Shown piece by piece: positions 625-48,495 of a stretch of 49,049 nucleotides of DNA; position 1 is the first letter of the stretch, and the number at the start of each line of letters is the position of its first letter. The position numbers and the translations under genes are program-made. The stretch is from the NCBI GenBank assembly GCA_034411815.1, contig DAOUMH010000006.1, forward strand, positions 1 through 49,049, read 5' to 3'. This stretch comes from Dehalococcoidales bacterium (GTDB taxonomy: Bacteria; Chloroflexota; Dehalococcoidia; Dehalococcoidales; DAOWJC01). The notes below the pieces were generated by a model that made no database searches, was not told where the DNA came from, and saw nothing but the letters and a program-made list of their open reading frames with translations.

Positions 625-865
625 AGTTCTTTAAAATATTGAAAGATGCTTCGGGGTGCAGATAGCTGCATAACAGGGAAGGCGGTGTGATTCCGTCGCT
701 GTCCCCGCAACCGTAACCAGGAACGAAAGTGGTATTTTAGCCACTGGGCTAATTAATATCCGGGAAGGCACCATGAGTAGGCTGAACTGGAAGCCGGGAG
801 ACCTACCTCGAAGCCAACAATATGACAGACTCCTCGGGGGTTGGGAGTGGTTATAGAACAAGCCA
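625..865 (+). promoter_or_regulatory. Cobalamin (B12) riboswitch in the nrdDG leader
   Basis: The conserved core reads cagGGAAggcGGTGtgATTCCgtcGCTGtCCCCGCAACCGTAAcc (about 683-718). The B12-box-like element is gAAGCCGGGAGACCTACC (about 790-808). The ORF-track ORFs 631-879(-) and 841-930(+) overlap this element and are not coding. Confidence 0.8.
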
Positions 866-867
866 TC

Positions 868-909
868 TATAGCCCGCACCTCAACTCGAGGCGGGCTATT
901 TATTTTTTA
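868..909 (+). terminator. Rho-independent terminator, the expression platform of the B12 riboswitch
   Basis: The stem pairs tAGCCCGC (870-877) with GCGGGCTa (891-898) and is followed by TTTATTTTTT, which ends about 20 nt before the nrdD ATG. Confidence 0.75.
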
Positions 910-930
910 AAGAGAGGGGGGACGAGCAGA

Positions 931-3186
931 ATGACAAAGCAGATAGCAGAGAAGGAGCACAGTATGTTGCTGAATAAGATAGGACAAATCAGGAAGCGCG
1001 ATGGCCGCATTGCCACCTTTGATACTGAAAAAATCACCCAGGCGGTGTTCAAGGCCTGCCAGGCCGTGGGAGATAACGACTACGATAAAGCCGTTAAGGT
1101 CTCACAACAGGTCATAGACATCATGGAGATTACCTGCCGGGGTTTGAGGGTGCCGGATGTCGAGGAGGTGCAGGACCTCGTGGAAAAGTTACTCATTGAA
1201 AAGGAATACTCCGAGATTGCCAAGGCATACATCCTCTACCGGGAACAGCACGCCCAGTTACGGAGGATGCATGACCTTTTCAGCGGCGCCGTCGAGATGG
1301 TAGATAAATACCTGGGTGAGAATGACTGGCGCACCAAGGAGAACAGCAATATGAGCTACTCGCTCCAGGGGCTGAACAACTACGTCTCATCGGATATCAT
1401 AGCCCACTACTGGCTCAATCACATCTACTCCTCCGAAGCAAGGCAAGCTCACACTACGGGGGATTTCCACATTCATGACCTCGGCATCCTCGGCGCCTAC
1501 TGCTGCGGGTGGGACCTGAGGGACCTGTTGCTACAGGGATTCCGGGGGGCAGCCGGAAAAACCGAGAGCTCGCCCGCCCGCCATTTCCGCAGTGCCCTGG
1601 GGCAGGTTGTCAACTTCTTTTACACCCTGCAGGGAGAATCTGCTGGAGCTCAGGCGTTCTCCAACTTCGATACCCTACTGGCACCCTTCATCCGCTATGA
1701 CGGTCTGACATACAAAGAGACCAAGCAGGCACTGCAGGAGTTTATCTTTAACCTGAACGTGCCGACCAGAGTCGGCTTCCAGACACCATTTACCAACCTC
1801 TCCTTTGACCTGACCCCACCCTCCTATCTGCGCGATGAAGCGGTCTGCATCGGCGAGGAAATTAAAGGGGAGACCTATGGCGACTTTCAGGAGGAGATGG
1901 ACACCCTCACCCGCGCCTTTGCCGAGATAATGGGAGAGGGAGATGCCAAGAGCAGGGTCTTCACCTTCCCTATCCCCACCTACAACATCACCCCGGACTT
2001 TGACCCGAATAACCCCAAGTTGGATACCCTGTGGGAAATGACAGCCAAATACGGTATCCCCTACTTCGCCAACTTTTTGAATACCGATATGCGCCCGGAG
2101 GACGCCCGCAGTATGTGCTGCCGCCTCCGGCTGGACGTGCGGGAGATAAAGCGACGCGGCGGCGGGCTCTTCGGCTCCAACCCGCTTACCGGCAGCGTGG
2201 GGGTGGTAACCATCAATATGCCACGCATCGCCTTCCTGTCCGAGAGCGAGGAGGACTTCTTCAGCCGTCTGGATACACTGATGAACCTAGCAAAGGACAA
2301 CCTGGAGGTCAAGCGCAAGGCTCTGGAAAAACTCACCGAAGAAGGTCTCTTCCCCTACTCGCTCTTCTATCTCAAAGCCATCAAGTCACGCTTCAAGAGC
2401 TACTGGGCTAACCATTTCTCAACAATCGGACTCATCGGTATGAACGAGGCATGCCTGAATTTCCTGGGCACCGGCATCAATACGGAAGAAGGCCAATCCT
2501 TCTCGCTCCGTGCCCTCCAGCATATGAAGGGCAGGCTTGATGATTTCCAGGACGAGACCGGTAACCTCTATAACCTAGAGGCAACCCCCGGCGAGGGCAC
2601 CAGCTACCGCCTCGCCCTGCTGGATAAGGAACATCACCACGGGATAATAACGGCCGGCGACAAAGAGCCCTACTATACCAATTCCACGCAACTGCCAGTC
2701 AATGCAGAGCTCGACCTATTCGAGGCACTGTCTTCACAGGACAAATTGCAACAGCAGTATACCGGCGGCACCGTGTTTCACTGCTTTCTCGGCGAGAGCA
2801 TCGATGAACCGACCATGGCGCGCGACCTGATAATGAAGGTAGCCAAGAGCTTCGGACTCCCCTATTTTACGCTGACACCAACCTTCTCCATCTGTCCGGA
2901 GCACGGCTATATACGGGGGCAGACGAGTCAATGTCCAACATGCGGTGCGGAGACGGAGATTTACTCACGTATTGTCGGCTACTTCCGCCCCATCAACCAG
3001 TGGAACAAGGGTAAGCACGAAGAGTTCGGGGAAAGAAAACCCTTTGCACCGGAACTACGAGAAAAGGCTTCAGGAGCAGAAAATGATAGCAGGAATCAAG
3101 GGAACGTCACTGATAGATTACCAGGGAAAGGTAGCGGCAGTGCTCTACACGAGCCGATGCAACTTCCGATGTCCATTCTGTCATAA
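931..3186 (+). CDS. nrdD: Anaerobic (class III) ribonucleoside-triphosphate reductase
   Basis: ATG at 931 follows AGAGAGGGGGG. There is an N-terminal ATP-cone (RKRDGRIATFDTEKI), a C-terminal Zn-ribbon (CPEHG..CPTCG) and the glycyl-radical motif RIVGYFRP. The last ~35 codons overlap nrdG. Confidence 0.93.
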   Translation: MTKQIAEKEHSMLLNKIGQIRKRDGRIATFDTEKITQAVFKACQAVGDNDYDKAVKVSQQVIDIMEITCRGLRVPDVEEVQDLVEKLLIEKEYSEIAKAYILYREQHAQLRRMHDLFSGAVEMVDKYLGENDWRTKENSNMSYSLQGLNNYVSSDIIAHYWLNHIYSSEARQAHTTGDFHIHDLGILGAYCCGWDLRDLLLQGFRGAAGKTESSPARHFRSALGQVVNFFYTLQGESAGAQAFSNFDTLLAPFIRYDGLTYKETKQALQEFIFNLNVPTRVGFQTPFTNLSFDLTPPSYLRDEAVCIGEEIKGETYGDFQEEMDTLTRAFAEIMGEGDAKSRVFTFPIPTYNITPDFDPNNPKLDTLWEMTAKYGIPYFANFLNTDMRPEDARSMCCRLRLDVREIKRRGGGLFGSNPLTGSVGVVTINMPRIAFLSESEEDFFSRLDTLMNLAKDNLEVKRKALEKLTEEGLFPYSLFYLKAIKSRFKSYWANHFSTIGLIGMNEACLNFLGTGINTEEGQSFSLRALQHMKGRLDDFQDETGNLYNLEATPGEGTSYRLALLDKEHHHGIITAGDKEPYYTNSTQLPVNAELDLFEALSSQDKLQQQYTGGTVFHCFLGESIDEPTMARDLIMKVAKSFGLPYFTLTPTFSICPEHGYIRGQTSQCPTCGAETEIYSRIVGYFRPINQWNKGKHEEFGERKPFAPELREKASGAENDSRNQGNVTDRLPGKGSGSALHEPMQLPMSILS

Positions 3187-14983: not shown

Positions 14984-17206
14984 TCACACCTTGCTTATTT
15001 TGCACTGGACGGCTCGCATTGTAACACCACCCTGGAAATCACAAGTCTCAGGCTCATCAGGAAAGAGCTGCCCCACGCCTGACTCCCACACCCCGAATAG
15101 GTATGGGTCCTCCCCGGACCTTTCCGGGAACCACCAGCCATGCTCTGCATGAACTACCTTCGGGTGAATCCCGTCAGTCAGCTCAGCCCTCTGCTTTATC
15201 TTCCCCTTGGGCGTCTCTATGTAAACCCAATCACCACTACTAATGCCATGTTCCTTTGCCGTATCAGGATGCAGCTGCATAATAGGGTCTGGATGGCGCT
15301 CCCGCAGCCTCGGCTGCTCCCTAAGACACGAGTGGTTGAATGTCCTGACTCGACCTCCAGCAATCAATATCAGGGGATAATCCTCCGGGCTGCCGGTAAC
15401 CCCGGGGATTTGAGGAAGGTCGCTATAGTGAGGTAATAGCTTATATCCAAGCTCCTTTAATATACTTGGCAGTAACTCAACCTTTCCTGACAGGGTTGCG
15501 AAACCGCTCTCCTCATACTGCTTATATTTACGAGGTGGGCGCAGGCTCCTCTGATCCCCAACCCACCTGACCGTCCTGACAGTTTCCTGGAAGCTAAGAC
15601 CTGTCGGTTCTAAATACTTGCTGTAGAAAGCTTCAAGGGTCTCAGGCCAATATGCTTCCTGTCCCAGGCGTATCCCCAAGCCTCGGCACAGGTCATAATC
15701 ATTCCTCCGCTCATACTTTGGCTTGACTGCCTGCTCACCAATCGACCTGTAGTACCCTTCAGGATCCATGTAGGGCTTCTCAAACATGTCAGTGATTGGA
15801 AACACATAGTCAGAAAGCATCGCACTAGGGGTCAGGTAGTGGTCAGCAGTAATGTGCAGCGCCAGCTTGTCGCTCTTCAATGCTTGGTAGACCCTCTTAT
15901 AGTTAGTTCGAGTAACCAAGACATTCATACCGAAATTCAACAGTGCTTTCACCGGGTAAGGCTCCTCGTTAATGATAGCATCCCATAGAGGACGGGGGCT
16001 AACATTGGGGTACAATGCCATTGGTTTACTATAGCCATTCTCACCATATACCTTATGCAAAGCCTTATGAAATAGCTTCAACGCCCTTAAGGACATGATT
16101 GGAAATATATCAGCATCAACCTTATCCCTAGTTCTCAGGGGGTGCTCAAATATCTTGTCAAAGTGCATATTCTGGTCATGGGCATAGTTTAAAGGTGAAA
16201 CCAGCACGTCACCACCCTTAACATCCAGATTGCCAGTAATGGCGCGCATGATACATTTAGCCAAATTTACCGATAGGGTTCGCCCCCTTCCCAACTGAGA
16301 ATGGGTCACCCCCCAACAGGTGGCCATACTCGCAGGAGCGCTGGTAGCGTAAATCCTAGCAACCTCGGCAATCTTCTCCGCCGGCACCCAGGTAATATCC
16401 TCTACCACCCGAGGTGGATAAGCCTTGATGAATTCCCTGACCTCATCAAAGCCCAGACACCACTTATCCACAAACTCCTTATCATAGAGCCCCTCTTCAA
16501 TGATCACATTTAACATCCCGTAGGCCAGAGCACCGTCGGTCCCCGGTTTTAGCTGCAACCATATATCTGCTTGCTCCGCTGTTTTGGTTCTTCTAGGGTC
16601 AATAACTATAATCTTTGCCCCCCCCCTCTTAAGCTCTAAAAAGTGGCTCCACGCTGAGGGAAAGGCAGCGAACGGATTTGCCCCGAAAACCACGGCACAC
16701 TTCGTTACACCGGGTCGCCCCATTTCAGGAACTGTGTCACCACCATAGACGGCAACCTCTGTTACAATCTGAGGTTGGTAACAATTCTTGGTTGAATCAA
16801 AAATGTTTGGTGTGCCAAAGAGGTTAGCCCACCGGACCATCGCATCACACTGCCGCGTACCACCGATACCGACCAACATAGCCGCCGCCTCCGGCCCATA
16901 ATCACTCCTTATATCTGCCAGCTTCCCCGCCACCTCGTCCAGGGCCTGTTCCCAAGATACCCTCTGCCACTTACCCTCTCCCCTTGCTCCAGCCCTCTTT
17001 AATGGATAGTTGAGACGGTTTGGGTGGTCATGGTAATCCAGAGATGCCAGGACATTCTTCTCGCAGCGAAACCCTGGTCCCGGACTGCGGAAGTTCTTGT
17101 CAGATTCTACCTTGACTACCTCCCCATCCTTGACCTGCACCTGGATGCCACACACTGACACGCAAAACATACAAACTGACCTCTTGAGTTCAACATCGTC
17201 TGACAC
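14984..17206 (-). CDS. Second molybdopterin oxidoreductase catalytic subunit (paralog of 10395-12623), no Tat signal
   Basis: GTG at 17206 follows GTGAGGT. The N-terminus is MSDDVELKRSVCMFCVSVCG. Shared blocks with the paralog include YPLKRAGARGEGKWQRVSWEQALD versus YPMKRAGQRGEGKWQRITWDEALD. Confidence 0.88.
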   Translation of the reverse strand: MSDDVELKRSVCMFCVSVCGIQVQVKDGEVVKVESDKNFRSPGPGFRCEKNVLASLDYHDHPNRLNYPLKRAGARGEGKWQRVSWEQALDEVAGKLADIRSDYGPEAAAMLVGIGGTRQCDAMVRWANLFGTPNIFDSTKNCYQPQIVTEVAVYGGDTVPEMGRPGVTKCAVVFGANPFAAFPSAWSHFLELKRGGAKIIVIDPRRTKTAEQADIWLQLKPGTDGALAYGMLNVIIEEGLYDKEFVDKWCLGFDEVREFIKAYPPRVVEDITWVPAEKIAEVARIYATSAPASMATCWGVTHSQLGRGRTLSVNLAKCIMRAITGNLDVKGGDVLVSPLNYAHDQNMHFDKIFEHPLRTRDKVDADIFPIMSLRALKLFHKALHKVYGENGYSKPMALYPNVSPRPLWDAIINEEPYPVKALLNFGMNVLVTRTNYKRVYQALKSDKLALHITADHYLTPSAMLSDYVFPITDMFEKPYMDPEGYYRSIGEQAVKPKYERRNDYDLCRGLGIRLGQEAYWPETLEAFYSKYLEPTGLSFQETVRTVRWVGDQRSLRPPRKYKQYEESGFATLSGKVELLPSILKELGYKLLPHYSDLPQIPGVTGSPEDYPLILIAGGRVRTFNHSCLREQPRLRERHPDPIMQLHPDTAKEHGISSGDWVYIETPKGKIKQRAELTDGIHPKVVHAEHGWWFPERSGEDPYLFGVWESGVGQLFPDEPETCDFQGGVTMRAVQCKISKV

Positions 17207-17241
17207 GTCTTACCTCACTTCACACCATTAGTTAAACGGAG

Positions 17242-17271
17242 ATTATAATATTATATCCCACTGAAAGTCAA
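17242..17271 (-). promoter_or_regulatory. Candidate promoter of the molybdoenzyme operon (TTGACT-18 nt-TATAAT on the minus strand)
   Basis: The reverse complement of 17266-17271 is TTGACT and the reverse complement of 17242-17247 is TATAAT. The element lies about 35 nt upstream of the GTG at 17206. Confidence 0.4.
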
Positions 17272-17383
17272 CCACACGCTCCGGTATGCTTAAACCCAAG
17301 CAAAACAGACCAGTATAATACCGCACCTAATGCTTAGCCTATATTAAAAGTAGGCGAGTATACCCTCACAGCACGGATACTAT

Positions 17384-17412
17384 CTGGGAGGTGATTAGAT
17401 GCTACCTCCCAG
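17384..17412 (+). other. 9-bp-stem hairpin CTGGGAGGT-(11 nt)-ACCTCCCAG at the left side of the AT-rich islet
   Basis: Read directly from the sequence. Its function is unknown. Confidence 0.5.
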
Positions 17413-17518
17413 TGTATTTGATATAATTGATGTATTCCCACGACTCCCATTATATCAGCTATATGATACAATAAATCAAGAAGACATCTATAGGCATGGA
17501 GTGGAGGATAAAATAGAT

Positions 17519-18268
17519 ATGAGTATCATTATGGGGCTTATTGGTAACGATGGAATAGTATTGGCTACTGATAGTCGTACCACATGGCAAAAAGCAGATG
17601 GATTCACCTATCATAATGATAACTCTCATAAGCTATATCAATTGACTAGTAATATAGGACTAATGACTTGTGGCTATAATAGTGGTTTTCAGCATTTTTT
17701 AGTTGACTATTTTTGCGGAGTATATATGCGAGACATGAAATCTAACATTGCGAAGTTTAAGAGTGATAAAACGTTGGCTGATGATTTTGAACTGAGTTAC
17801 TTGGAGGTAGTCAATAGTTTTGCTAAAGCAATGCGGGAGGAAATTAAGCCATTTGTAGAAAGCTATAACATCTTGAAGAGGGCTGGCGGTATGGACTTTG
17901 TGTTAGCAGGATATGATAAAAATGCTGCTAAAATGTTCTCTGTAGATGTCATGGACTTAGCTACTCCATTCGCACCAAGAGAGTGCGAGAGGTATTATAT
18001 CAGTGGCGTAAATGAAGTCGGTGTGTATTGGACACGTAAATTAAACATGAATGACTTAGACCTACCGATTGAGTTTCTAAAAAGGTTTGCTGTAATGGTC
18101 ATATTAGAAACTATTAAAACAGATGATATGGTTGGCGAACCTATACAGTTGGCAGTTGTGGATAAGAAAGGCTACCATGATATTACTAGTGAGGTTGATA
18201 GCATCAAGCCTAATTTAGATTCAGAACACAAATGGCTGTTTGATTACATGAAACAATGGGAGAAATGA
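17519..18268 (+). CDS. Proteasome beta-subunit/HslV-like Ntn-hydrolase fold protein, predicted Ser1 nucleophile
   Basis: ATG at 17519 follows GGAGG; the ORF-track start at 17399 is less likely. MSIIMGLIGNDGIVLATDSRTT aligns with HslV [21 protein letters not shown], placing Ser2 on Thr1 and Asp18 on Asp17. SHKLYQL..GLMTCGYNSG resembles the Lys33 and aG.aaD blocks. The gene is AT-rich. Confidence 0.55.
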   Translation: MSIIMGLIGNDGIVLATDSRTTWQKADGFTYHNDNSHKLYQLTSNIGLMTCGYNSGFQHFLVDYFCGVYMRDMKSNIAKFKSDKTLADDFELSYLEVVNSFAKAMREEIKPFVESYNILKRAGGMDFVLAGYDKNAAKMFSVDVMDLATPFAPRECERYYISGVNEVGVYWTRKLNMNDLDLPIEFLKRFAVMVILETIKTDDMVGEPIQLAVVDKKGYHDITSEVDSIKPNLDSEHKWLFDYMKQWEK

Positions 18269-18269
18269 A

Positions 18270-18458
18270 ATGTCTAAATCAAAGCCACAAAAACCATTAA
18301 CCAAGAAGCGTTTTGAGGGATTACTCAGGAGAGCGGCACGGCCTGTTTCTGAGTGGAAACACCAACAAGAAGAGACAGAAACATCGGAGTCTCATCCTTC
18401 CGATGGTTGTAACGATACACATAAGAATCAAGATAAGACTGAAGGTAAAGAGGACTAA
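18270..18458 (+). pseudogene. Short ORF translationally coupled to the Ntn hydrolase; only about the first 17-20 codons look native, the rest is antisense of the IS transposase
   Basis: The junction reads TGAaATG and the RBS is GGGAG. The ORF starts MSKSKPQKPLTKKRFEGLL, then runs into the 3' end of the transposase gene (transposase stop at 18325-18327). Confidence 0.3.
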
Positions 18459-19270
18459 CCGAGTGATTAACACCATCAATACCACGCTTGATATTGCTCC
18501 AGAGAGACTCAACAGTGTTGACATGAGCAATACCAGAGACATATTGCTTGGCGGAATGCTGTACAAATTGGTGGGCGTATCCAAGCCTTTCAATTTGGCT
18601 GTAGCTACGAAGCTCATCGGTAAAGACGATGGTCTTATCTTCTCTGGCAACCCTTTCCGCAATCATCGGAAGCAAGGTTCTGGCTTTGACATTGGGAATT
18701 ACCTTTGCGATGGCATTTCCGTTGCGTTCTACCATTCCCATGACAACCGTTTTGCCCTCTGCACCACGACCACGCTTCCCTGTTCTTTTCCCGCCAATGT
18801 AAGTTTCGTCAACTTCAACCTGTCCGATAAGCGGGTTGACATCTTCAGCCATGAGCTTGCGGATTTGCCCGAACATACGCCAAGCCGTCTTGTAGGTGAC
18901 ACCCAATTCCCTTTGAAGTTGCTTGGCGGAAATGCCTGTTTTGGTGGAAGCCATCAGGAATATAGCGTGAAACCAGGAGCGAAGCGGAGTATCGGACTTG
19001 TGAAAGATAGTGCCAGCAGTAGGCGACACGTGAGAACCGCAGAACTTGCAGGAATAGACCTTGCGATTAGCGATTCTGTAGTGGGTAGTAACCTTCTGGC
19101 ACTTCTGGCAGTAAACGCCCTTTGGATAGCGAGCCTTGAAAAGAAACTCAAGGCAGGTATCGTCATTCGGAAACTGTTTTTCAAAATCCTTGATACTGTA
19201 GGTCTTCATGGCAACTCTCCTAATCTCATTTTATACCTACAGTATAGCATAAAACCTCCGTGTTGTCAAG
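18290..19270 (-). mobile_element. IS1595-family insertion sequence (boundaries approximate)
   Basis: Contains the transposase CDS 18325-19209. I could not identify the terminal inverted repeats or the target duplication by eye. Confidence 0.5.
18325..19209 (-). CDS. IS1595-family (ISXO2-like DDE) transposase with N-terminal zinc ribbon
   Basis: The N-terminal zinc ribbon is CQKCQ..CKFCG. An HTH-like segment follows (ISAKQLQRELGVTYKTAWRM), then VEVDETYIGG and TDELRSY, typical of ISXO2-like/IS1595 transposases. Confidence 0.88.
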   Translation of the reverse strand: MKTYSIKDFEKQFPNDDTCLEFLFKARYPKGVYCQKCQKVTTHYRIANRKVYSCKFCGSHVSPTAGTIFHKSDTPLRSWFHAIFLMASTKTGISAKQLQRELGVTYKTAWRMFGQIRKLMAEDVNPLIGQVEVDETYIGGKRTGKRGRGAEGKTVVMGMVERNGNAIAKVIPNVKARTLLPMIAERVAREDKTIVFTDELRSYSQIERLGYAHQFVQHSAKQYVSGIAHVNTVESLWSNIKRGIDGVNHSVSPLYLQSYLDSYVYRYNHRKDETPMFLSLLVGVSTQKQAVPLS

Positions 19271-23815: not shown

Positions 23816-24859
23816 ATGCGCGAGGCGATGCTCTACGAAAAGCTCCCGAACTCCAGGGTGCAATGCAACACCTGCCAGTGGCGCTGCACCATAGAGCCCG
23901 ATAAGCTTGGTGTTTGCCGAATGTACCAGAACAAAAATGGCACCCTGTACAACCTGAACTACGCTCAGGCATCATCAATAAACGCCGACCCTATCGAAAA
24001 GAAGCCCCTGTTCCACTTCTTCCCGAACAGTCTGGCTTTCTCCCTAGGCACCTGGGGCTGCAACTTTCACTGCCAGCACTGCCAGAACTGGGAAATTTCT
24101 TCTGCTGAGACCGGGGAGCCATGGCGCAACTCTCAGGAGATTCAACCCCAAGCGGCAATAGACCTTGCCAAACACCACCACTGCGAGGGCATCGCCTGGA
24201 CATACAACGAGCCCGGTATCTGGTTTGAATATACCCTCGACTCAGCCAAGCTGGCCAAGGAGAATAACCTGTATACTGTCTATGTGACCAATGGCTACCT
24301 GACCCCCGAGGCACTGGATACCATTGGACCCTACCTGGATGCCTGGCGTGTCGATATTAAGGGTTTCTCCGACTCCTTCTACCAAAGGCTGGCAAGGGTC
24401 AGCCGCTGGCGAGGAATACTTGAGGTCACCAAGCAGGCCCAAGATAAGTGGAACATGCATATCGAGGTTATTACCAATATCATACCCACCATGAATGATG
24501 ATGACCAGCAACTTGAAGGCATTGCTAACTGGATACGAGCCGAGCTTGGTGAGCTAACCCCGTGGCATGTAACCAGATTCTACCCCAACCACCATATGAT
24601 GCATTTGCCCCCGACCCCTATATCCACCCTTGAGCATGCCTATGACATCGGGAGAAAAGCCGGTCTCAGGTTTATCTATGCCGGTAATGTCCCCGGCCAC
24701 CAGAGCGAAAACACCATCTGCTACTCCTGCGGTAAGCCCATCGTAGAGAGGTTTGGCTATCAAACCAAGGTCGTGGGTCTGGATGGGTCAAGGTGCAAGT
24801 TCTGCGGGGCAGAGCTTAACTTCAGGACACCCGAGACAAAAGGGGGGAGTCATGGTTAG
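23816..24859 (+). CDS. amrS: AmmeMemoRadiSam system radical SAM enzyme
   Basis: Has an N-terminal Cys cluster (CNTCQWRC..C) and the radical SAM motif [11 protein letters not shown]. The genomic context with MEMO1/AMMECR1 supports the call. Confidence 0.82.
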
Positions 24860-26159
24860 GAATCCGGTTGCATCGGGGCAATTCTATCCAGGCTCACCCT
24901 CCCAACTAAAGGCGATGATTAAAGGCCTTGTTGATGAGGAGGCAGTAAAAGAGGAGGTAATCGGCCTGATTTCACCCCACGCCGGGTATGCCTACTCGGG
25001 ACTGGTAGCCGCTGCCGCCATATCCAGAATCAGGTTTAAGGACACCTTTATCATTATGGGGCCTAACCACACCGGGGAGGGAAAACCGCTCAGTATTATG
25101 ACACAGGGGACATGGAAAACACCCCTGGGGAGGGTGAAGATTGATTCAGAGCTGGGCAAGCAGATTCTAGCCAACTCCAGCCACCTACAGGAAGACTATG
25201 AGGCCCACCAGCATGAGCACTCCATAGAGGTTCAACTCCCGTTTCTGCAATATTTCAAGCCGGATATCAAGCTAGTGCCCATCATACTCAGCTACTCCAG
25301 CGATACCACATATAAAGAAATCGGCAGGGAGCTTGCCCAAGCCATCAAGGATTTGAACAGAGAAGTGGTAATCATAGCCTCAAGCGACATGACCCACTAC
25401 GAATCACAGGAGTCAGCCAAGAGGAAGGATACCCAGGCTATAGACGCCATTCTGGCCCTAGATGAGGATGAGCTACTAAAACGCGTCAGGGAACTAAACA
25501 TATCAATGTGCGGCTACGCCCCGGCAGTCAGCCTCATATCTGCGGCCAGAGAGCTAGGGGCAACCGGAGCCGAGCTGGTCGGATACCAGACCAGTGGCGA
25601 CACCACCGGCGATTATACCAGCGTAGTCGGCTATGCCGGGGTAATAATAAAAGGGATGTCCCCACTGGTAAAATTAGCCAAGACAGCGGTGGAAAGCTCC
25701 ATAAGGGGAGCCAGGGCCCCCCAGCCAGAAGAGCTTACCCCTGAGATGAAACTTAAGGCCGGGGTCTTCGTCTCCATTCACAAGCTCGGCGAGCTGCGAG
25801 GCTGCATCGGCACCTTCGAGCCTACCAGAGATAATGTGGCTGAAGAAATCACCGCCAACGCCATAAGCTCAGCCACCAGAGACCCCCGCTTCCCACCCGT
25901 CGCTTCCAGCGAGCTTGAAGACCTTACCTACAGCGTGGATGTCCTGACCAAGCCTGAGCCGGTAGAGAGCCAGGATCAGCTGGACCCCAGAAAGTACGGG
26001 GTTATAGTAGAGTGCGGGGGCAGGCGGGGTCTGCTCCTACCTGACCTCGAGGGGGTAGATACGGTAGACTACCAGATTGACATCTGCCGCCAGAAAGCCG
26101 GCATAGAACCCGATGAACCAGTAAAGCTGTACAGATTTGAGGTGAGGAGATATAAGTAG
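24852..26159 (+). CDS. MEMO1-family (AmrB) and AMMECR1 (AmrA) fusion protein
   Basis: ATG at 24852 overlaps the amrS stop by 8 nt. The N-terminal part has [16 protein letters not shown] (MEMO1). The C-terminal part has [21 protein letters not shown] (AMMECR1). Confidence 0.82.
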
Positions 26160-26195
26160 GGGGGATTAGTATAAGGAAAAAGAATCTAGGAGGGT

Positions 26196-27665
26196 ATGAT
26201 GATTACTCTGCAAGGCATGCAATTAAAACAAAAGGGGTATACCCTATATCTGACTAGTGCCACAGTGGAAGAAATTAAGAAGTGGTTTGATGCTGGTAAT
26301 GTCTATGCCGATATTTGGAAGAGAGAAAAAGAAGAAGGTTATCAAAGGGAGCCCAATAAGACAAGGTTCAAAGAAATCGCGGAATATCTAGAGGGGAAAT
26401 TGGAGATTGAAGAAACCCTGTTCCCTAGTTCTGTAATCCTAAACATACGGCAAAAAGGAACTATAGAATTCAAAGCCTTCGAAAAATCCCAGAGCAAGAA
26501 ACCTATAGAATCGGGCGAGATTCTAATTGATGACGAAGCCTTGCCTTTTTGTGAAGTTGACGGACAGCACCGTGTACGAGGGTTGATTGAAGCATATAAA
26601 GAACTCAAAGAAAAACAACTAGACGATTTCGAAGAGATTAAATCTTACCCGGTCCCGCTTACAATTATTGAAGGGCTAGACCGCCCCACAGAAGCAATTC
26701 AATTTGTTGTAATAAATAGCACTCAGAGAAAAGTTGACCCTGCTTTAGCGCTGAGAATTCTTTATAAACGTTGGAGGGATAAGGGTGAAAAATTAGAGTT
26801 CTTTTTAAGGAGGGGAAAAGCTTGGCGGCTTTATGCAGTGGACATATGTAACCATCTTAATTCTGCCGTAGATTCACCTTGGTGTGACAAAATTATTGCA
26901 CCGGGGGACGAACGCAAGGGCCGAGTAATAAGTGAACAAAATTTTGTAAACACATTGGAAACAGTTTATTCCAAAATGGAACGTGACGAAATAAAGAGTT
27001 ACTTACCTCTGTACTGGAAAGCTATTGCAAGCGCAAGTCTATGGCAAGAATGTGTGGGTGAAAATGCTAAGAAGTATTCCTTGCAACGCACAAACGGAAC
27101 TAGCGTTCTTCATTGGTTGTTTCCTTTTGTCTACTTCAAAAGCAAAAGTCTCGGCGGTGTTAAGCTTAAAACATTTATAGAAACCCTTAAACCTATAAGA
27201 AAAAAGTGGCTCCCATTATTCTGGGAAAGAGGCGGGCAAGCAAAATTATATACCAGTAGAGGCAGCCAACAAGAACTTGTAGATAAGATGATTGCATCCA
27301 CTCTCCCCGGTAAAGAACTTAAGCTAGCGAAATTTAAAGGTCTAGAGGGTAGTAAGGAAGCAAAAATCTGGGATACTGCTTCCAAGCTCCTCTCGCTACG
27401 GCTATACCATTTATTTACTAGTGAAAAATTAAGTAGCATTGATGCTGTAGCTACAGGAGTTTATGTTTTCTATTCGTTTACAAAGCAGAAATTCTATGTG
27501 GGGCGCTCAGAGAAAGCCGACCTAAAATCACGACTACAGAATCATTTTCAGAATAAAGAGAATGAGTATCATATTTTTAACTACCGTTTATGCAAAGAGC
27601 CTAAAGAAGCACATGATTTCGAGTGTGCACTATATCACTTATTACCTAATCACCCCTACTCTTGA
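26196..27665 (+). CDS. DGQHR-domain (DndB/ParB-Srx-like) protein fused to a C-terminal GIY-YIG nuclease domain
   Basis: DGQHR-domain motifs are EGYQREPNKTR, FCEVDGQHRVRGL and FVVINSTQRKV. GIY-YIG motifs are GVYVFY, FYVGRS, RLQNH and FECALYH. RBS is AGGAGGG. The gene is AT-rich compared with its flanks. Confidence 0.72.
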   Translation: MMITLQGMQLKQKGYTLYLTSATVEEIKKWFDAGNVYADIWKREKEEGYQREPNKTRFKEIAEYLEGKLEIEETLFPSSVILNIRQKGTIEFKAFEKSQSKKPIESGEILIDDEALPFCEVDGQHRVRGLIEAYKELKEKQLDDFEEIKSYPVPLTIIEGLDRPTEAIQFVVINSTQRKVDPALALRILYKRWRDKGEKLEFFLRRGKAWRLYAVDICNHLNSAVDSPWCDKIIAPGDERKGRVISEQNFVNTLETVYSKMERDEIKSYLPLYWKAIASASLWQECVGENAKKYSLQRTNGTSVLHWLFPFVYFKSKSLGGVKLKTFIETLKPIRKKWLPLFWERGGQAKLYTSRGSQQELVDKMIASTLPGKELKLAKFKGLEGSKEAKIWDTASKLLSLRLYHLFTSEKLSSIDAVATGVYVFYSFTKQKFYVGRSEKADLKSRLQNHFQNKENEYHIFNYRLCKEPKEAHDFECALYHLLPNHPYS

Positions 27666-27807
27666 ATAAAGACCATCCTAGCGCTTTCGTTGACAGGAAG
27701 TGCCCATTTTGTTCAACTTCAGAATCATCTTAGCACAAAGAAAAGGGGAGAGAGCGACGTTACCATAAGTCTGACGAGGTTCCCAAATAATCTCCACGGT
27801 AAAACTA

Positions 27808-27854
27808 TTGACAAAGAGGCAATTTTAGTATATTATAAATGATAATAATTTTCA
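27808..27854 (+). promoter_or_regulatory. fur-family gene promoter (TTGACA-17 nt-TATTAT) with a 7-1-7 Fur-type box TGATAATaATTTTCA (27840-27854)
   Basis: Read directly from the sequence. The box sits just downstream of the -10 and 13 nt before the ATG. Confidence 0.6.
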
Positions 27855-27867
27855 TTTAGAGCTTGAG

Positions 27868-47139: not shown

Positions 47140-48495
47140 ATGGAATCTAGGTCGGCACAGGAAATATGGGAAGCTGCTCTCGGTGAGCTGCAAATCCAGG
47201 TCAGTAGGCCAAACTACCGGACTTGGCTGGCAAAGACTCTAGGGCTGAGTTACCAGAATAATGAATTTATCATCGGCGTCCCCAACACCTTTGTCGCCGA
47301 GTATCTAGAGCAGAACCAGCGTTCCTTGATCGAAAAAACCCTTATGGGGATTACCCGGCGTGATATTAAAATCGTTTTCAGCACGGATGCTATCCCTCAA
47401 GACCCTCTAACCAGCCGCCGGGGACAGAGGAAAACACCAGTTCAGGAAACTACCCTCCCCCTGTTCAACCCCGACTATATCTTCGAGTCCTTCATCGTCG
47501 GTAGCTGCAATAACCTGGCCTGTGCCGCGGCTCTGAAGGTAGCTGAAGACCCGGGACACAGCTACAACCCGCTATTCATATGCGGGGGGGCGGGTCTAGG
47601 TAAGACTCACCTGCTCCAGGCCATCGGGCATACCGCCCTAGCCCACAATATGAGGGTTATCTATGTCAGCGCCGAGCAATTCACCAATGAGTTTACAACC
47701 GCCATCAGGGGAAGGCTGACCCAGGAATTCCGCAACAAATATAGAAACGCCGACATGCTGTTAATTGATGACATCCAGTTCCTCAGCGGCAAGCCGCAGA
47801 CGGAGGAGAACTTCTTCCACACCTTTAACGAACTGCATAACGCCAACCGTCAGATTGCGGTCACCAGCGACCGTTCGCCTAAGTCCCTGCCCTTACTGCA
47901 AGACCGACTGCGCTCCCGCTTCGAATGGGGGTTGGTCGCCGATGTTCAACCCCCGGACCTTGAAACCCGCCTGGCTATTCTGCAAGCTAAGGCCGAGCAT
48001 AAGGGAACTAACATCTCTCCCGACGTCCTGGAGTTCATTGCCCAGCGGATTCACCAGAACATAAGGGAATTGGAGGGCTCGCTTAACCGGGTTATTGCCT
48101 ACGCTAACCTGCTTAGAGCCCTGATTACCCCCGAGCTAGCCGCTCAAGCCCTTGAGGATATAGCCGTCAAGGAGCCTAAGAGCGACTCATCTACACCGCA
48201 CCTCATAATGGAGGCCGTAGTCGACTGCTTCCAGCTAACCCTCCAAGACCTGAAAGGCCGGAAACGAGATAAAGAGACCGCCCTAGCCCGACAGATAGCA
48301 ATGTATCTCCTCAAGCAGGAAGCCGGCTGGTCACTGACCCAGATCGGCAGAGAGCTGGGCGGGAGAGAGCCGGCTACTGTCAGCCACGCTTACGAAAAGA
48401 TAGCCGCTGCCATCAATGACAGCCCTTACCTGGGTCACAAGGTCTCAAACATCCAACAGCAAGTGTCACTAAAACAAAAGGGCCAGAACTGTTAA
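47140..48495 (+). CDS. dnaA: Chromosomal replication initiator protein DnaA
   Basis: Walker A is GGAGLGKTHLL, Walker B is LLIDDIQF, and the C-terminal DNA-binding helix region is LTQIGRELGGREPATVSHA. Confidence 0.97.
   Translation: MESRSAQEIWEAALGELQIQVSRPNYRTWLAKTLGLSYQNNEFIIGVPNTFVAEYLEQNQRSLIEKTLMGITRRDIKIVFSTDAIPQDPLTSRRGQRKTPVQETTLPLFNPDYIFESFIVGSCNNLACAAALKVAEDPGHSYNPLFICGGAGLGKTHLLQAIGHTALAHNMRVIYVSAEQFTNEFTTAIRGRLTQEFRNKYRNADMLLIDDIQFLSGKPQTEENFFHTFNELHNANRQIAVTSDRSPKSLPLLQDRLRSRFEWGLVADVQPPDLETRLAILQAKAEHKGTNISPDVLEFIAQRIHQNIRELEGSLNRVIAYANLLRALITPELAAQALEDIAVKEPKSDSSTPHLIMEAVVDCFQLTLQDLKGRKRDKETALARQIAMYLLKQEAGWSLTQIGRELGGREPATVSHAYEKIAAAINDSPYLGHKVSNIQQQVSLKQKGQNC

Follow-up and report, generated by a model that had tools for sequence, protein, structure and literature searches.

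The stretch of DNA analysed here, hereafter the window, comprises positions 1 to 49,049 of contig DAOUMH010000006.1 from the Dehalococcoidales bacterium assembly GCA_034411815.1. On its forward strand, between a gene for a Memo-AMMECR1 fusion protein and a fur-family gene, lies an open reading frame (ORF) in which a DGQHR domain is joined to a GIY-YIG nuclease domain. A preliminary description, made from the letters of the window, had read this ORF as a horizontally acquired one-gene islet encoding a restriction-like nuclease. The evidence presented here indicates that the gene unites in one chain a module, so far without a name, that many bacterial phyla encode by two separate genes; the module probably acts as a nuclease against foreign DNA. 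The two modules are stably coupled as a self-contained unit without a third conserved partner. The parts of the ORF (in nucleotides, nt, and amino acids, aa) are these.

26196..27665, forward strand: the DGQHR-GIY-YIG ORF as read in the window, 489 aa, ending prematurely through a frameshift
26223..27098, forward strand: DGQHR domain (DndB/DpdB-type ParB/Srx fold), aa 10-301, matched by TIGR03187; the predicted part for nucleoside triphosphate (NTP) binding and DNA sensing
aa 48-51, 26559-26573 and 26700-26717, forward strand: the GYQR, DGQHR and QFxxIN motifs respectively, all of them invariant columns
27099..27428, forward strand: C-terminal part of an all-helical middle region, with linker (helices H209-H410, modelled with high confidence in the homolog P0002)
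27429..27665, forward strand: in-frame part of the GIY-YIG nuclease domain, with Y423 (G-V-Y), Y434 (F-Y-V-G), R446, H450 and E476 (27621-27623), ending before the conserved Asn

The two-domain architecture had been proposed from motifs, all of which do occur in the translation, and it is borne out by profile searches that exceed the curated cut-offs for both domains. For the DGQHR domain TIGR03187 gives 109.9 bits (cut-off 58.85) over aa 10-301 and PF14072 (DndB) gives 55.5 bits (cut-off 29.1); for the GIY-YIG domain PF01541 gives 27.7 bits (cut-off 22.6) over aa 421-471, a match that covers profile positions 3-43 of 78 only. The residues G48, Y49, Q50 and R51, D122 to R126, and Q169, F170 and N174 are invariant in the homolog alignment A1, and they correspond to the QR, DGQ(Q/H)R and FxxxN motifs, whose equivalence is described in PMC4619093. 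An AlphaFold2 model of P0002, an intact homolog that is 88% identical to the window protein, was built from a 61-sequence alignment with a mean predicted local distance difference test (pLDDT) of 90.3 and a predicted template-modelling score of 0.83, and it too supports both domains. Foldseek comparison of this model with the Protein Data Bank (PDB) returned ParB N-domains (6t1f, probability 0.95) and, for the C-terminus, the GIY-YIG domain of UvrC (1yd6, probability 0.98, root-mean-square deviation 3.0 A over 82 columns). Its top neighbours in BFVD are viral GmrSD-N/DUF262 and DndB-like proteins, with E down to 5e-9. A sequence search of the PDB with the family profile found no meaningful relative. 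The entire helical region (about aa 200-410) and the end of the TIGR03187 match overlap; by analogy the region would resemble the helical domain that DndB-C has in common with GmrSD-M and SspE-M (PMC12065111).

The canonical positions of the NTP motifs and of the GIY-YIG active site are conserved across about 25 divergent clusters of homologs. In the C-terminal module GxY, YxG, Arg, His, Glu, Asn, a His-Pro pair and a terminal CxxC are invariant or nearly so across about 24 of them. In UvrC and I-TevI this Asn is part of the GIY-YIG active site. The invariant His...His-Pro...CxxC pattern suggests a zinc site that anchors the tail.

A word-indexed search returned about 55 clusters at 50-88% identity, the few with source names being metagenome-assembled genomes (MAGs) of Chloroflexi, Dehalococcoidia or Dehalococcoidales, together with a subgroup of about 485 aa that has the same architecture at 29-32% identity (BLASTP; 30-35% in alignment A1). 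An exhaustive profile search of 1.84 billion representatives, a domain-architecture census of the kind that the preliminary description had called for, produced 3,324 DGQHR-type hits, among which about 25 clusters (50% identity) cover the profile through the nuclease; below these the scores fall to stand-alone DGQHR proteins of about 365 aa (profile positions 1-367). Searches of IMG/VR, 50,697 phage records and 72,556 plasmids turned up no full-length fused member. The fused form is rare, occurring in Chloroflexota and in DPANN-type archaea.

The loci of the subgroup at about 30% identity appear to come from archaea: a Woesearchaeota MAG is the source of one, and archaeal primase or NurA/HerA genes are present in others. 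Fused members here lie amid restriction and defence genes, as the following loci show (loci other than the window bear L numbers).

L009: GmrSD nearby
L098: an SNF2 helicase and a DUF1156 methylase nearby
L095, 6173-13845: a Rad50/SMC-like ATPase, NurA, the fused gene and a HerA-like DUF87 ATPase, with MjaI downstream (DPANN-type contig)
L105: BsobI and a Schlafen/AlbA_2 protein nearby
L091: ThaI and a methyltransferase nearby
L090: an HNH protein with 305 bits on a PADLOC model

A HerA-like gene also adjoins the fused gene in L088, L090 and L094, and in L095 the system may have taken on a multi-gene form, or the fused gene may have been inserted into an operon for end resection. Some archaeal members, not consistently, adjoin an SMC-like ATPase gene and small ORFs in a manner like DndD/DndE. 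This identity was rejected, the best PADLOC matches of the ATPase being LmuB and mad3, with none to DndD/DndE, and the small ORFs matching nothing. Identity with MADS was rejected as well: the description of that system has no ParB or DUF262 component, and the similarity is a generic one between ATPases.

The same two modules are encoded separately on a conjugative plasmid of Sinorhizobium mexicanum, where the DGQHR gene overlaps by 4 nt a separate gene for a 112-aa 'GIY-YIG nuclease family protein'. Searches with hidden Markov models of the modules showed that this is a general arrangement: a GIY-YIG ORF of about 113 aa lies directly 3' and on the same strand in 41 of the 75 species-representative loci with DGQHR-only genes. 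The two genes usually overlap or abut, and six loci in IMG/VR are arranged likewise. The hosts include Bacteroidota, Pseudomonadota, Acidobacteriota, Planctomycetota, Verrucomicrobiota, Gemmatimonadota, Nitrospirota, Melainabacteria, Parcubacteria and others, and among the carriers in culture are Sediminibacterium ginsengisoli DSM 22335, Aequorivita aquimaris D-24 and hosts of Sinorhizobium plasmids. Among 371 neighbours of two-gene operons there is no conserved third gene, the largest cluster spanning three loci, and neither PADLOC nor NCBIfam names the pair, both giving generic domain matches only. When the DGQHR parts are placed in a neighbour-joining tree, the 25 fused proteins fall into an exclusive clade of their own and the 41 two-gene proteins into another, with partner-less DGQHR proteins elsewhere. 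In two lineages, therefore, DGQHR and GIY-YIG are coupled stably and throughout the clade.

Compared with the fused gene, the two-gene operon has the same modules (a DGQHR protein of about 370 aa and a GIY-YIG protein of about 113 aa) in the same order; it is equally self-contained and is translationally coupled. Its GIY-YIG protein is without the terminal His-Pro...CxxC extension of the fused clade, and its DGQHR proteins, which stand apart from the fused ones, are annotated only generically. The notion of a one-gene system therefore holds for the solitary fused gene of the window and has to be given up for the family as a whole, since the fused form is rare, the common form is a two-gene operon and some archaeal members lie beside SMC- or HerA-like ATPases.

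Two other arrangements of DGQHR genes were encountered. The solo DGQHR proteins nearest to the fused clade, from Dehalococcoidia (L016, L018, L023, L028 and L072), lie beside mutS, in divergent orientation, in five related genomes; a nuclease partner was sought for this sister clade and none was found, the conserved neighbours being mutS and ribonucleotide reductase in what looks like synteny. On the Providencia plasmid NZ_CP120529.1 (L223, 30364-32234) genes for a DGQHR protein of 327 aa and a hypothetical protein of 294 aa are inserted between umuD and umuC, and in this plasmid family DGQHR is paired with a different partner, without a GIY-YIG gene.

The copy in the window departs from the family at its 3' end, where the following features lie.

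27653..27656, forward strand: frameshift site, a CCCC run that is CC in five orthologs, i.e. a +2 insertion (DNA alignment A3)
27650..27733, forward strand: out-of-frame remnant of the C-terminal tail, with Asn at 27665-27667, His-Pro, CPFC at 27701-27712 and a stop at 27731-27733
26155..26169: 5' arm AGTAGGGGGGATTAG of a 15-nt inverted repeat with its partner CTAATCACCCCTACT at 27646-27660, 14 of 15 positions complementary and 1476 nt apart

Nearly all close homologs are 503-513 aa long, with the C-terminus ...ECALYHLLPxHLxxNKEHPSAxEGxKCPFC. The out-of-frame stretch at 27650-27733 translates as LLLNKDHPSAFVDRKCPFCSTSESS, followed by the stop, and removal of 2 nt restores a full-length protein that ends in HLLLNKDHPSAFVDRKCPFCSTSESS. 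As read, the window protein keeps the Tyr, Tyr, Arg, His and Glu of GIY-YIG and loses the Asn, the His-Pro and the CxxC, so that the set of active-site residues that is complete family-wide is incomplete here, and the putative metal site formed by the His, His, Cys and Cys of the tail is lost with it. The preliminary description missed the frameshift; a truncated and inactive module was among the findings that it had itself named as speaking against its idea. Disruption is not peculiar to this genome: the L006 copy has its own 1-nt deletion in the tail, and in the L220/L221 copies, found on contigs of two or more samples, the frame is shifted within the QFVVIN-TQKKV motif. Real inactivation thus recurs in the family, with the window, L006 and L220/L221 disrupted independently.

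Because the tail is still well conserved, the lesion in the window is either recent or an assembly error, and this copy is most likely nuclease-dead and recently pseudogenised unless the insertion is such an error. An intact or still functional copy, with the +2 insertion an artefact of assembly or sequencing in a homopolymer, or with the truncated protein active, seems to us unlikely though well short of far-fetched. The insertion does fall within a C-run, the out-of-frame tail is 70-90% conserved relative to the orthologs with the Asn, His-Pro and CPFC all kept, and the remaining 485 codons show no damage and evolve under purifying selection. Short-read assembly does not, however, typically err by expanding a homopolymer by 2 nt, inactivation in relatives is evidently real, and the lost Asn is conserved in fused and split GIY-YIG modules alike. 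The arms of the inverted repeat bracket the ORF exactly, and the 3' arm includes the inserted CC, without which the complementarity is weaker; the repeat could be due to chance (an estimated 0.1 or so expected per 2.3 kb) or could reflect a template-switch origin of the frameshift.

The surroundings of the ORF are bounded by the following genes and signals.

23816-24859: radical-SAM activase gene, preceding the Memo-AMMECR1 fusion gene
24852..26159, forward strand: Memo-AMMECR1 fusion gene (AmmeMemoRadiSam proteins B and A), an ORF with Pfam Memo and AMMECR1 matches; conserved upstream boundary of a variable slot
26160..26195, forward strand: spacer of 36 nt, with a Shine-Dalgarno-like AGGAGGG at 26188-26194, partly homologous to the spacer of L002
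27808..27836, forward strand: sigma-70-like promoter of the fur-family gene (TTGACA, 17 nt, TATTAT; 11 of 12 matches), the downstream boundary of the insert in this genome
27868-28293: fur-family gene, downstream of the ORF

These boundaries agree with those first described, the ORF beginning 36 nt after the Memo-AMMECR1 stop at 26159 and ending upstream of the fur promoter. The real start is probably the second ATG, at 26199, as most homologs begin MITLQG. The hand counts by which the stretch had been called AT-rich were exact (GC content 0.350 at 26221-26280 and 0.567 at 26041-26100). Over its whole length the gene has a GC content of 0.397 against a window mean of 0.507 (standard deviation 0.038 in 1470-nt windows), the second-lowest of the 49 kb. 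The deficit falls mainly at third codon positions, that is, at synonymous sites: their GC content (GC3) is 0.359, whereas the radical-SAM, Memo-AMMECR1 and fur genes have values of 0.63-0.68. The gene is solitary in the window, as had been noted, no dnd, dpd, ssp or methyltransferase gene occurring among the approximately 40 large ORFs scanned. There is no tRNA or structured-RNA feature at the locus and no tRNA in the window. The rest of the window is ordinary chromosomal DNA, with nrdD and its cobalamin riboswitch, molybdopterin oxidoreductases, an ABC transporter, the pyr operon and dnaA.

The gene lies directly 3' of the radical-SAM and Memo-AMMECR1 genes in the window, L001, L002/L003 and L006; in L220/L221 two small genes intervene. 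A functional link to AmmeMemoRadiSam was considered and rejected: the synteny is absent in L005 (71% identity), L086 (60%), L085 (51%) and all archaeal loci, and the Memo-AMMECR1 fusion is represented by more than 120 clusters at 78-82% identity as against about 45 clusters of the DGQHR-GIY-YIG gene. Four of four long contigs from equally related genomes carry other cargo after Memo-AMMECR1, and this, with the absence of the synteny elsewhere, leads us to attribute the adjacency to synteny held in common at a variable slot. The slot, between Memo-AMMECR1 and MgsA/RarA (L216-L219, L001, L220), is hypervariable in this Dehalococcoidales-type lineage, with MgsA often farther downstream. Its cargo may be four tandem nitroreductases, a Schlafen/AlbA_2 protein, a PAS-HD protein with transporters, a glyoxalase, the DGQHR-GIY-YIG gene or unrelated genes.

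At occupied sites a conserved double-hairpin element of about 80 nt (...GAGGGGC..GCCCCTC...CCCCC..GGGGGAYACAGGGGGTGAGG) lies 3' of the gene, and it is found at the positions below.

L001:3970-4050: double-hairpin element
L002:9530-9615 (also in L003 and L004): double-hairpin element
L219:7308-7415: double-hairpin element
L220:6978-7010: remnant of the element

In L219, an empty site, the element directly follows the Memo-AMMECR1 stop, and its position after the gene in L001 and L002 marks the gene as a discrete cassette. The element, which is absent from the window, might terminate the operon or be a REP-like or recombination site. Cargo resembling toxin-antitoxin genes seems to occupy slots together with the fused gene: in L002/L003 a ParE toxin gene and a 77-aa ORF lie just 3' of it, with a MazE/PIN pair about 7.5 kb beyond. 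Just 3' of the fused gene a small DUF5678 gene occurs in a bacterial locus at 60% identity (L086:9971-10150) and an archaeal one at about 30% (L091:11657-11851), and also in L087, L092 and L093.

The gene is accordingly accessory cargo in a variable slot, which is the sense in which the islet reading stands; it is not a recent arrival. Orthologs have diverged to a number of synonymous substitutions per site (dS) of 0.7 up to saturation, and their ratio of nonsynonymous (dN) to synonymous change is 0.07-0.24, as compared with 0.07-0.12 for the neighbouring genes. This divergence, the purifying selection, the synteny and the low GC3 in every host all argue against recent entry. GC content is 0.36-0.42 and GC3 0.33-0.43 in each of the hosts (the window, L001, L002, L005 and L006), the flanks having a GC content of 0.49-0.57 and the neighbouring genes a GC3 near 0.65. 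For the window and L001 copies, dN and dS each amount to about 0.55 of the values for the flanking genes. Both the GC3 that stays low and the reduced dN and dS may have their cause in codon-level selection or in lateral exchange among members of the clade.

Some further observations concern the window rather than the gene. The near-consensus promoter of the fur-family gene is followed by an AT-rich, Fur-box-like sequence, AATGATAATAATTTTCATT (27808-27860 for the two together), whose position just upstream of the gene suggests autoregulation. A cobalamin riboswitch (RF00174, 107.7 bits) at 637-824 lies directly upstream of nrdD with an ATP-cone (841-3186), encoding an anaerobic ribonucleotide reductase. 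The dnaA gene, at 47140-48495, is close to the contig end, so that the window may be origin-proximal. The lowest GC content of the window, 0.394, is at 17151-18620, a stretch that spans the intergenic 17207-17398 and a 289-aa ORF with a weak proteasome-subunit match and extends into a 323-aa ORF without a Pfam match; the region 16500-18300 may be a second foreign islet.

On balance we favour, by analogy with GmrSD, SspE and BrxU, the reading that the gene encodes a single-chain enzyme in which a ParB-fold NTPase is combined with a nuclease, and that this enzyme is NTP-gated and restricts foreign DNA. The DGQHR domain would bind ATP or GTP, dimerise, and clamp DNA by means of the helical domain. 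Recognition of a feature of the foreign DNA, most simply a modification, would link nuclease activation to NTP turnover. One strand would be nicked at each GIY-YIG site, a dimer thereby making a double-strand break, and phage or plasmid DNA would be restricted. A modification is the simplest guess at the target because no methyltransferase accompanies the gene. The analogy with type IV-like one-protein nucleases is a reasonable one. Going further, and only tentatively, since we hold the wider claim to be possible rather than probable, DGQHR and GIY-YIG may constitute a new stand-alone type IV-like family of restriction or defence systems, parallel to GmrSD/SspE with both domains swapped. Such a family would be encoded by two genes in at least 41 bacterial species and on plasmids and proviruses, and by a fused gene in Dehalococcoidales-type Chloroflexota and DPANN-type archaea, the zinc site of the tail coupling sensor to nuclease.

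Several observations weigh against restriction of foreign DNA as the function. Three independent frameshifts imply that the gene is dispensable, and the persistently low GC3 counts against it too, as do the lower dS and dN than in the flanks for the window and L001 copies. The gene of the window and those of its close relatives L085 and L086 lie amid housekeeping genes, without a clear defence island. Around the two-gene operons a crude Pfam census shows no clear defence enrichment, with only three ResIII/DEAD helicases and two IS21 IstB among 147 immediate neighbours. Proximity to defence genes, for which the preliminary description had proposed a test, is seen in the archaeal fused members, with no clear sign of it around the two-gene operons or in the clade of the window. 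Modification dependence is a guess, and since the protein has no sequence membership in GmrSD_N/DUF262, the mechanistic analogy rests on fold and architecture.

Three other accounts of the family have to be set against this one. The gene might be a selfish, homing-type element whose GIY-YIG domain cuts a specific chromosomal site into which the gene then copies itself in related genomes, with the ParB-like domain as its DNA-targeting module rather than an immune sensor. The best GIY-YIG matches are indeed, weakly, to models of homing and group I intron endonucleases (TIGR01453 at 21.6 bits against a cut-off of 56.05; PADLOC HEase at 23 bits), the same intergenic site from the Memo-AMMECR1 stop to the hairpin element is used in several lineages and is empty or otherwise filled in equally related genomes, the reduced dN and dS relative to the flanks look as if the gene had moved more recently, its GC3 remains foreign-looking, and an inverted repeat brackets the ORF. 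The gene is nevertheless free-standing and chromosomal, with no intron, intein or duplicated target site to be seen and without the NUMOD/IENR-type DNA-binding modules of homing endonucleases, and the family occurs in at least five unrelated contexts with no member in the phage records and no full-length one on viral contigs. Homing endonucleases decay fast after fixation, whereas here strong purifying selection has acted over the entire 500-aa protein, NTPase motifs included, to saturating dS, and the split form is stable across many phyla; we regard homing as improbable.

A lineage-specific nuclease of DNA repair or maintenance, acting as UvrC, Cho or Slx1 do and using the ParB-like domain as its loader, would be a housekeeping enzyme, in keeping with a dN/dS as low as that of the neighbouring housekeeping genes, with the synteny kept within the clade, with UvrC as the closest structural match of the nuclease, with the context in the window, L085 and L086, and with the mutS neighbours of the nearest solo DGQHR genes. 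Its distribution is too patchy for that role (about 45 clusters to the more than 120 of Memo-AMMECR1, and absence from the site in all four sampled relatives), its codon composition is foreign, three lineages have lost the reading frame independently, and the archaeal members are embedded among restriction enzymes, which together leave this account quite improbable.

That the gene is instead a remnant or regulator of a dnd, dpd or ssp-type modification system, the modification genes being elsewhere or lost, we hold to be very unlikely. The DGQHR family is best known from DndB and DpdB, to which there are weak matches (DpdB NF041060 44.9 bits, DGQHR_dnd_1 TIGR04172 47.3 bits, DndB TIGR03233 20.6 bits), and the SMC-like ATPase and small ORFs beside some archaeal members are reminiscent of DndD/DndE. 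The equivalog cut-offs are, however, far higher (300, 450 and 328 bits respectively), so that the protein, on these scores, is not DndB or DpdB proper. The SMC-like neighbour is not a DndD, as set out above, and a nuclease that is conserved clade-wide would be needless in a mere regulator. Homologs embedded in such clusters had been named as a reason for doubt; no dndACDE, dndBCDE, dpdA, dpdABC-type or ssp genes were found in the window or at any sampled fused locus.

If restriction of foreign DNA is indeed the function, the family adds a new branch to the theme of a ParB-fold NTPase that drives a nuclease, represented experimentally so far by GmrSD, BrxU and SspE, and it would show that the DndB/DpdB-type DGQHR domain, familiar as a companion of DNA-modification enzymes, has come to serve as the sensor of a free-standing nuclease as well. 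The cultured carriers of the two-gene form make the hypothesis directly testable. For annotation, there is now a rationale to treat a gene for a 'DGQHR domain-containing protein' as one unit with an adjacent gene for a 'GIY-YIG nuclease family protein'. For the present genome, the outcome is a variable cargo slot after the AmmeMemoRadiSam genes, occupied by what is probably a recent pseudogene.

The preliminary description did not recognise the protein as a described system, and the comparison with known systems leads to the same result. PADLOC v2.0.0, whose models cover MADS, Lamassu, PDC-S14 and Uzume among others, gives no full-length system match, with weak or partial matches to DpdB (40.6 bits), HEase (23), PDC-S14 (about 13) and UzuA (about 16), and NCBIfam has no match to a described system. 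The searchable literature, including a GIY-YIG survey and surveys of ParB-fold, Dnd, BREX and Menshen systems, holds no description of a DGQHR/ParB-GIY-YIG architecture, although a supplementary mention is possible; no ParB/DGQHR fusion is listed in the 2006 survey of GIY-YIG architectures. UvrC/Cho, the I-TevI type, Eco29kI/Cfr42I/Hpy188I and SNIPE have the same GIY-YIG fold and residues (Tyr, Tyr, Arg, His, Glu, Asn) as the fused protein, and GIY-YIG domains do serve in restriction and defence (PMC1564403; bioRxiv 10.1101/2025.11.03.685801). These nucleases are without a ParB/DGQHR domain, and the HP...CxxC tail of the fused family lies outside PF01541. ParB-like cores of the COG1479/DGQHR kind have been found fused to HNH, PD-(D/E)xK and HEPN nucleases (PMC3632139).

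DndB and DpdB belong to the same domain family as the fused protein and have a helical C-domain and the invariant DGQHR motif. DpdB, a DGQHR/DGQQR protein, is a DNA-stimulated ATPase whose helical domains have been modelled to encircle DNA (PMC10164549), and for the N-terminal half of the fused protein it offers the best precedent of function. Unlike the fused protein, both are without a nuclease and reside inside multi-gene modification clusters. The closest parallel in design is with the type IV proteins GmrSD, BrxU and SspE (DUF262 plus DUF1524), which likewise unite a ParB/Srx-fold N-domain, a helical middle part and a C-terminal nuclease in one chain, have the QR, DGQ(Q/H)R and FxxxN motifs, and can stand without a methyltransferase; GmrSD also occurs either split or fused (PMC4619093). 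In GmrSD and SspE it is the ParB-like DUF262 domain that detects modified DNA, its NTPase activity unlocking the nuclease to which it is fused (PMC12065111). The N-domain of the fused protein is of the DGQHR/DndB kind (PF14072, TIGR03187), with no PF03235 match at E <= 1, and hhalign against one genuine GmrSD sequence aligned the DGQxR motif alone, with a probability of 2%; the nuclease is GIY-YIG, as opposed to the His-Me/HNH-type DUF1524 (PF07510) of GmrSD, SspE and BrxU. With both defining Pfam domains absent, the protein is not a member of that family, but by analogy it would work as GmrSD, SspE and BrxU do.

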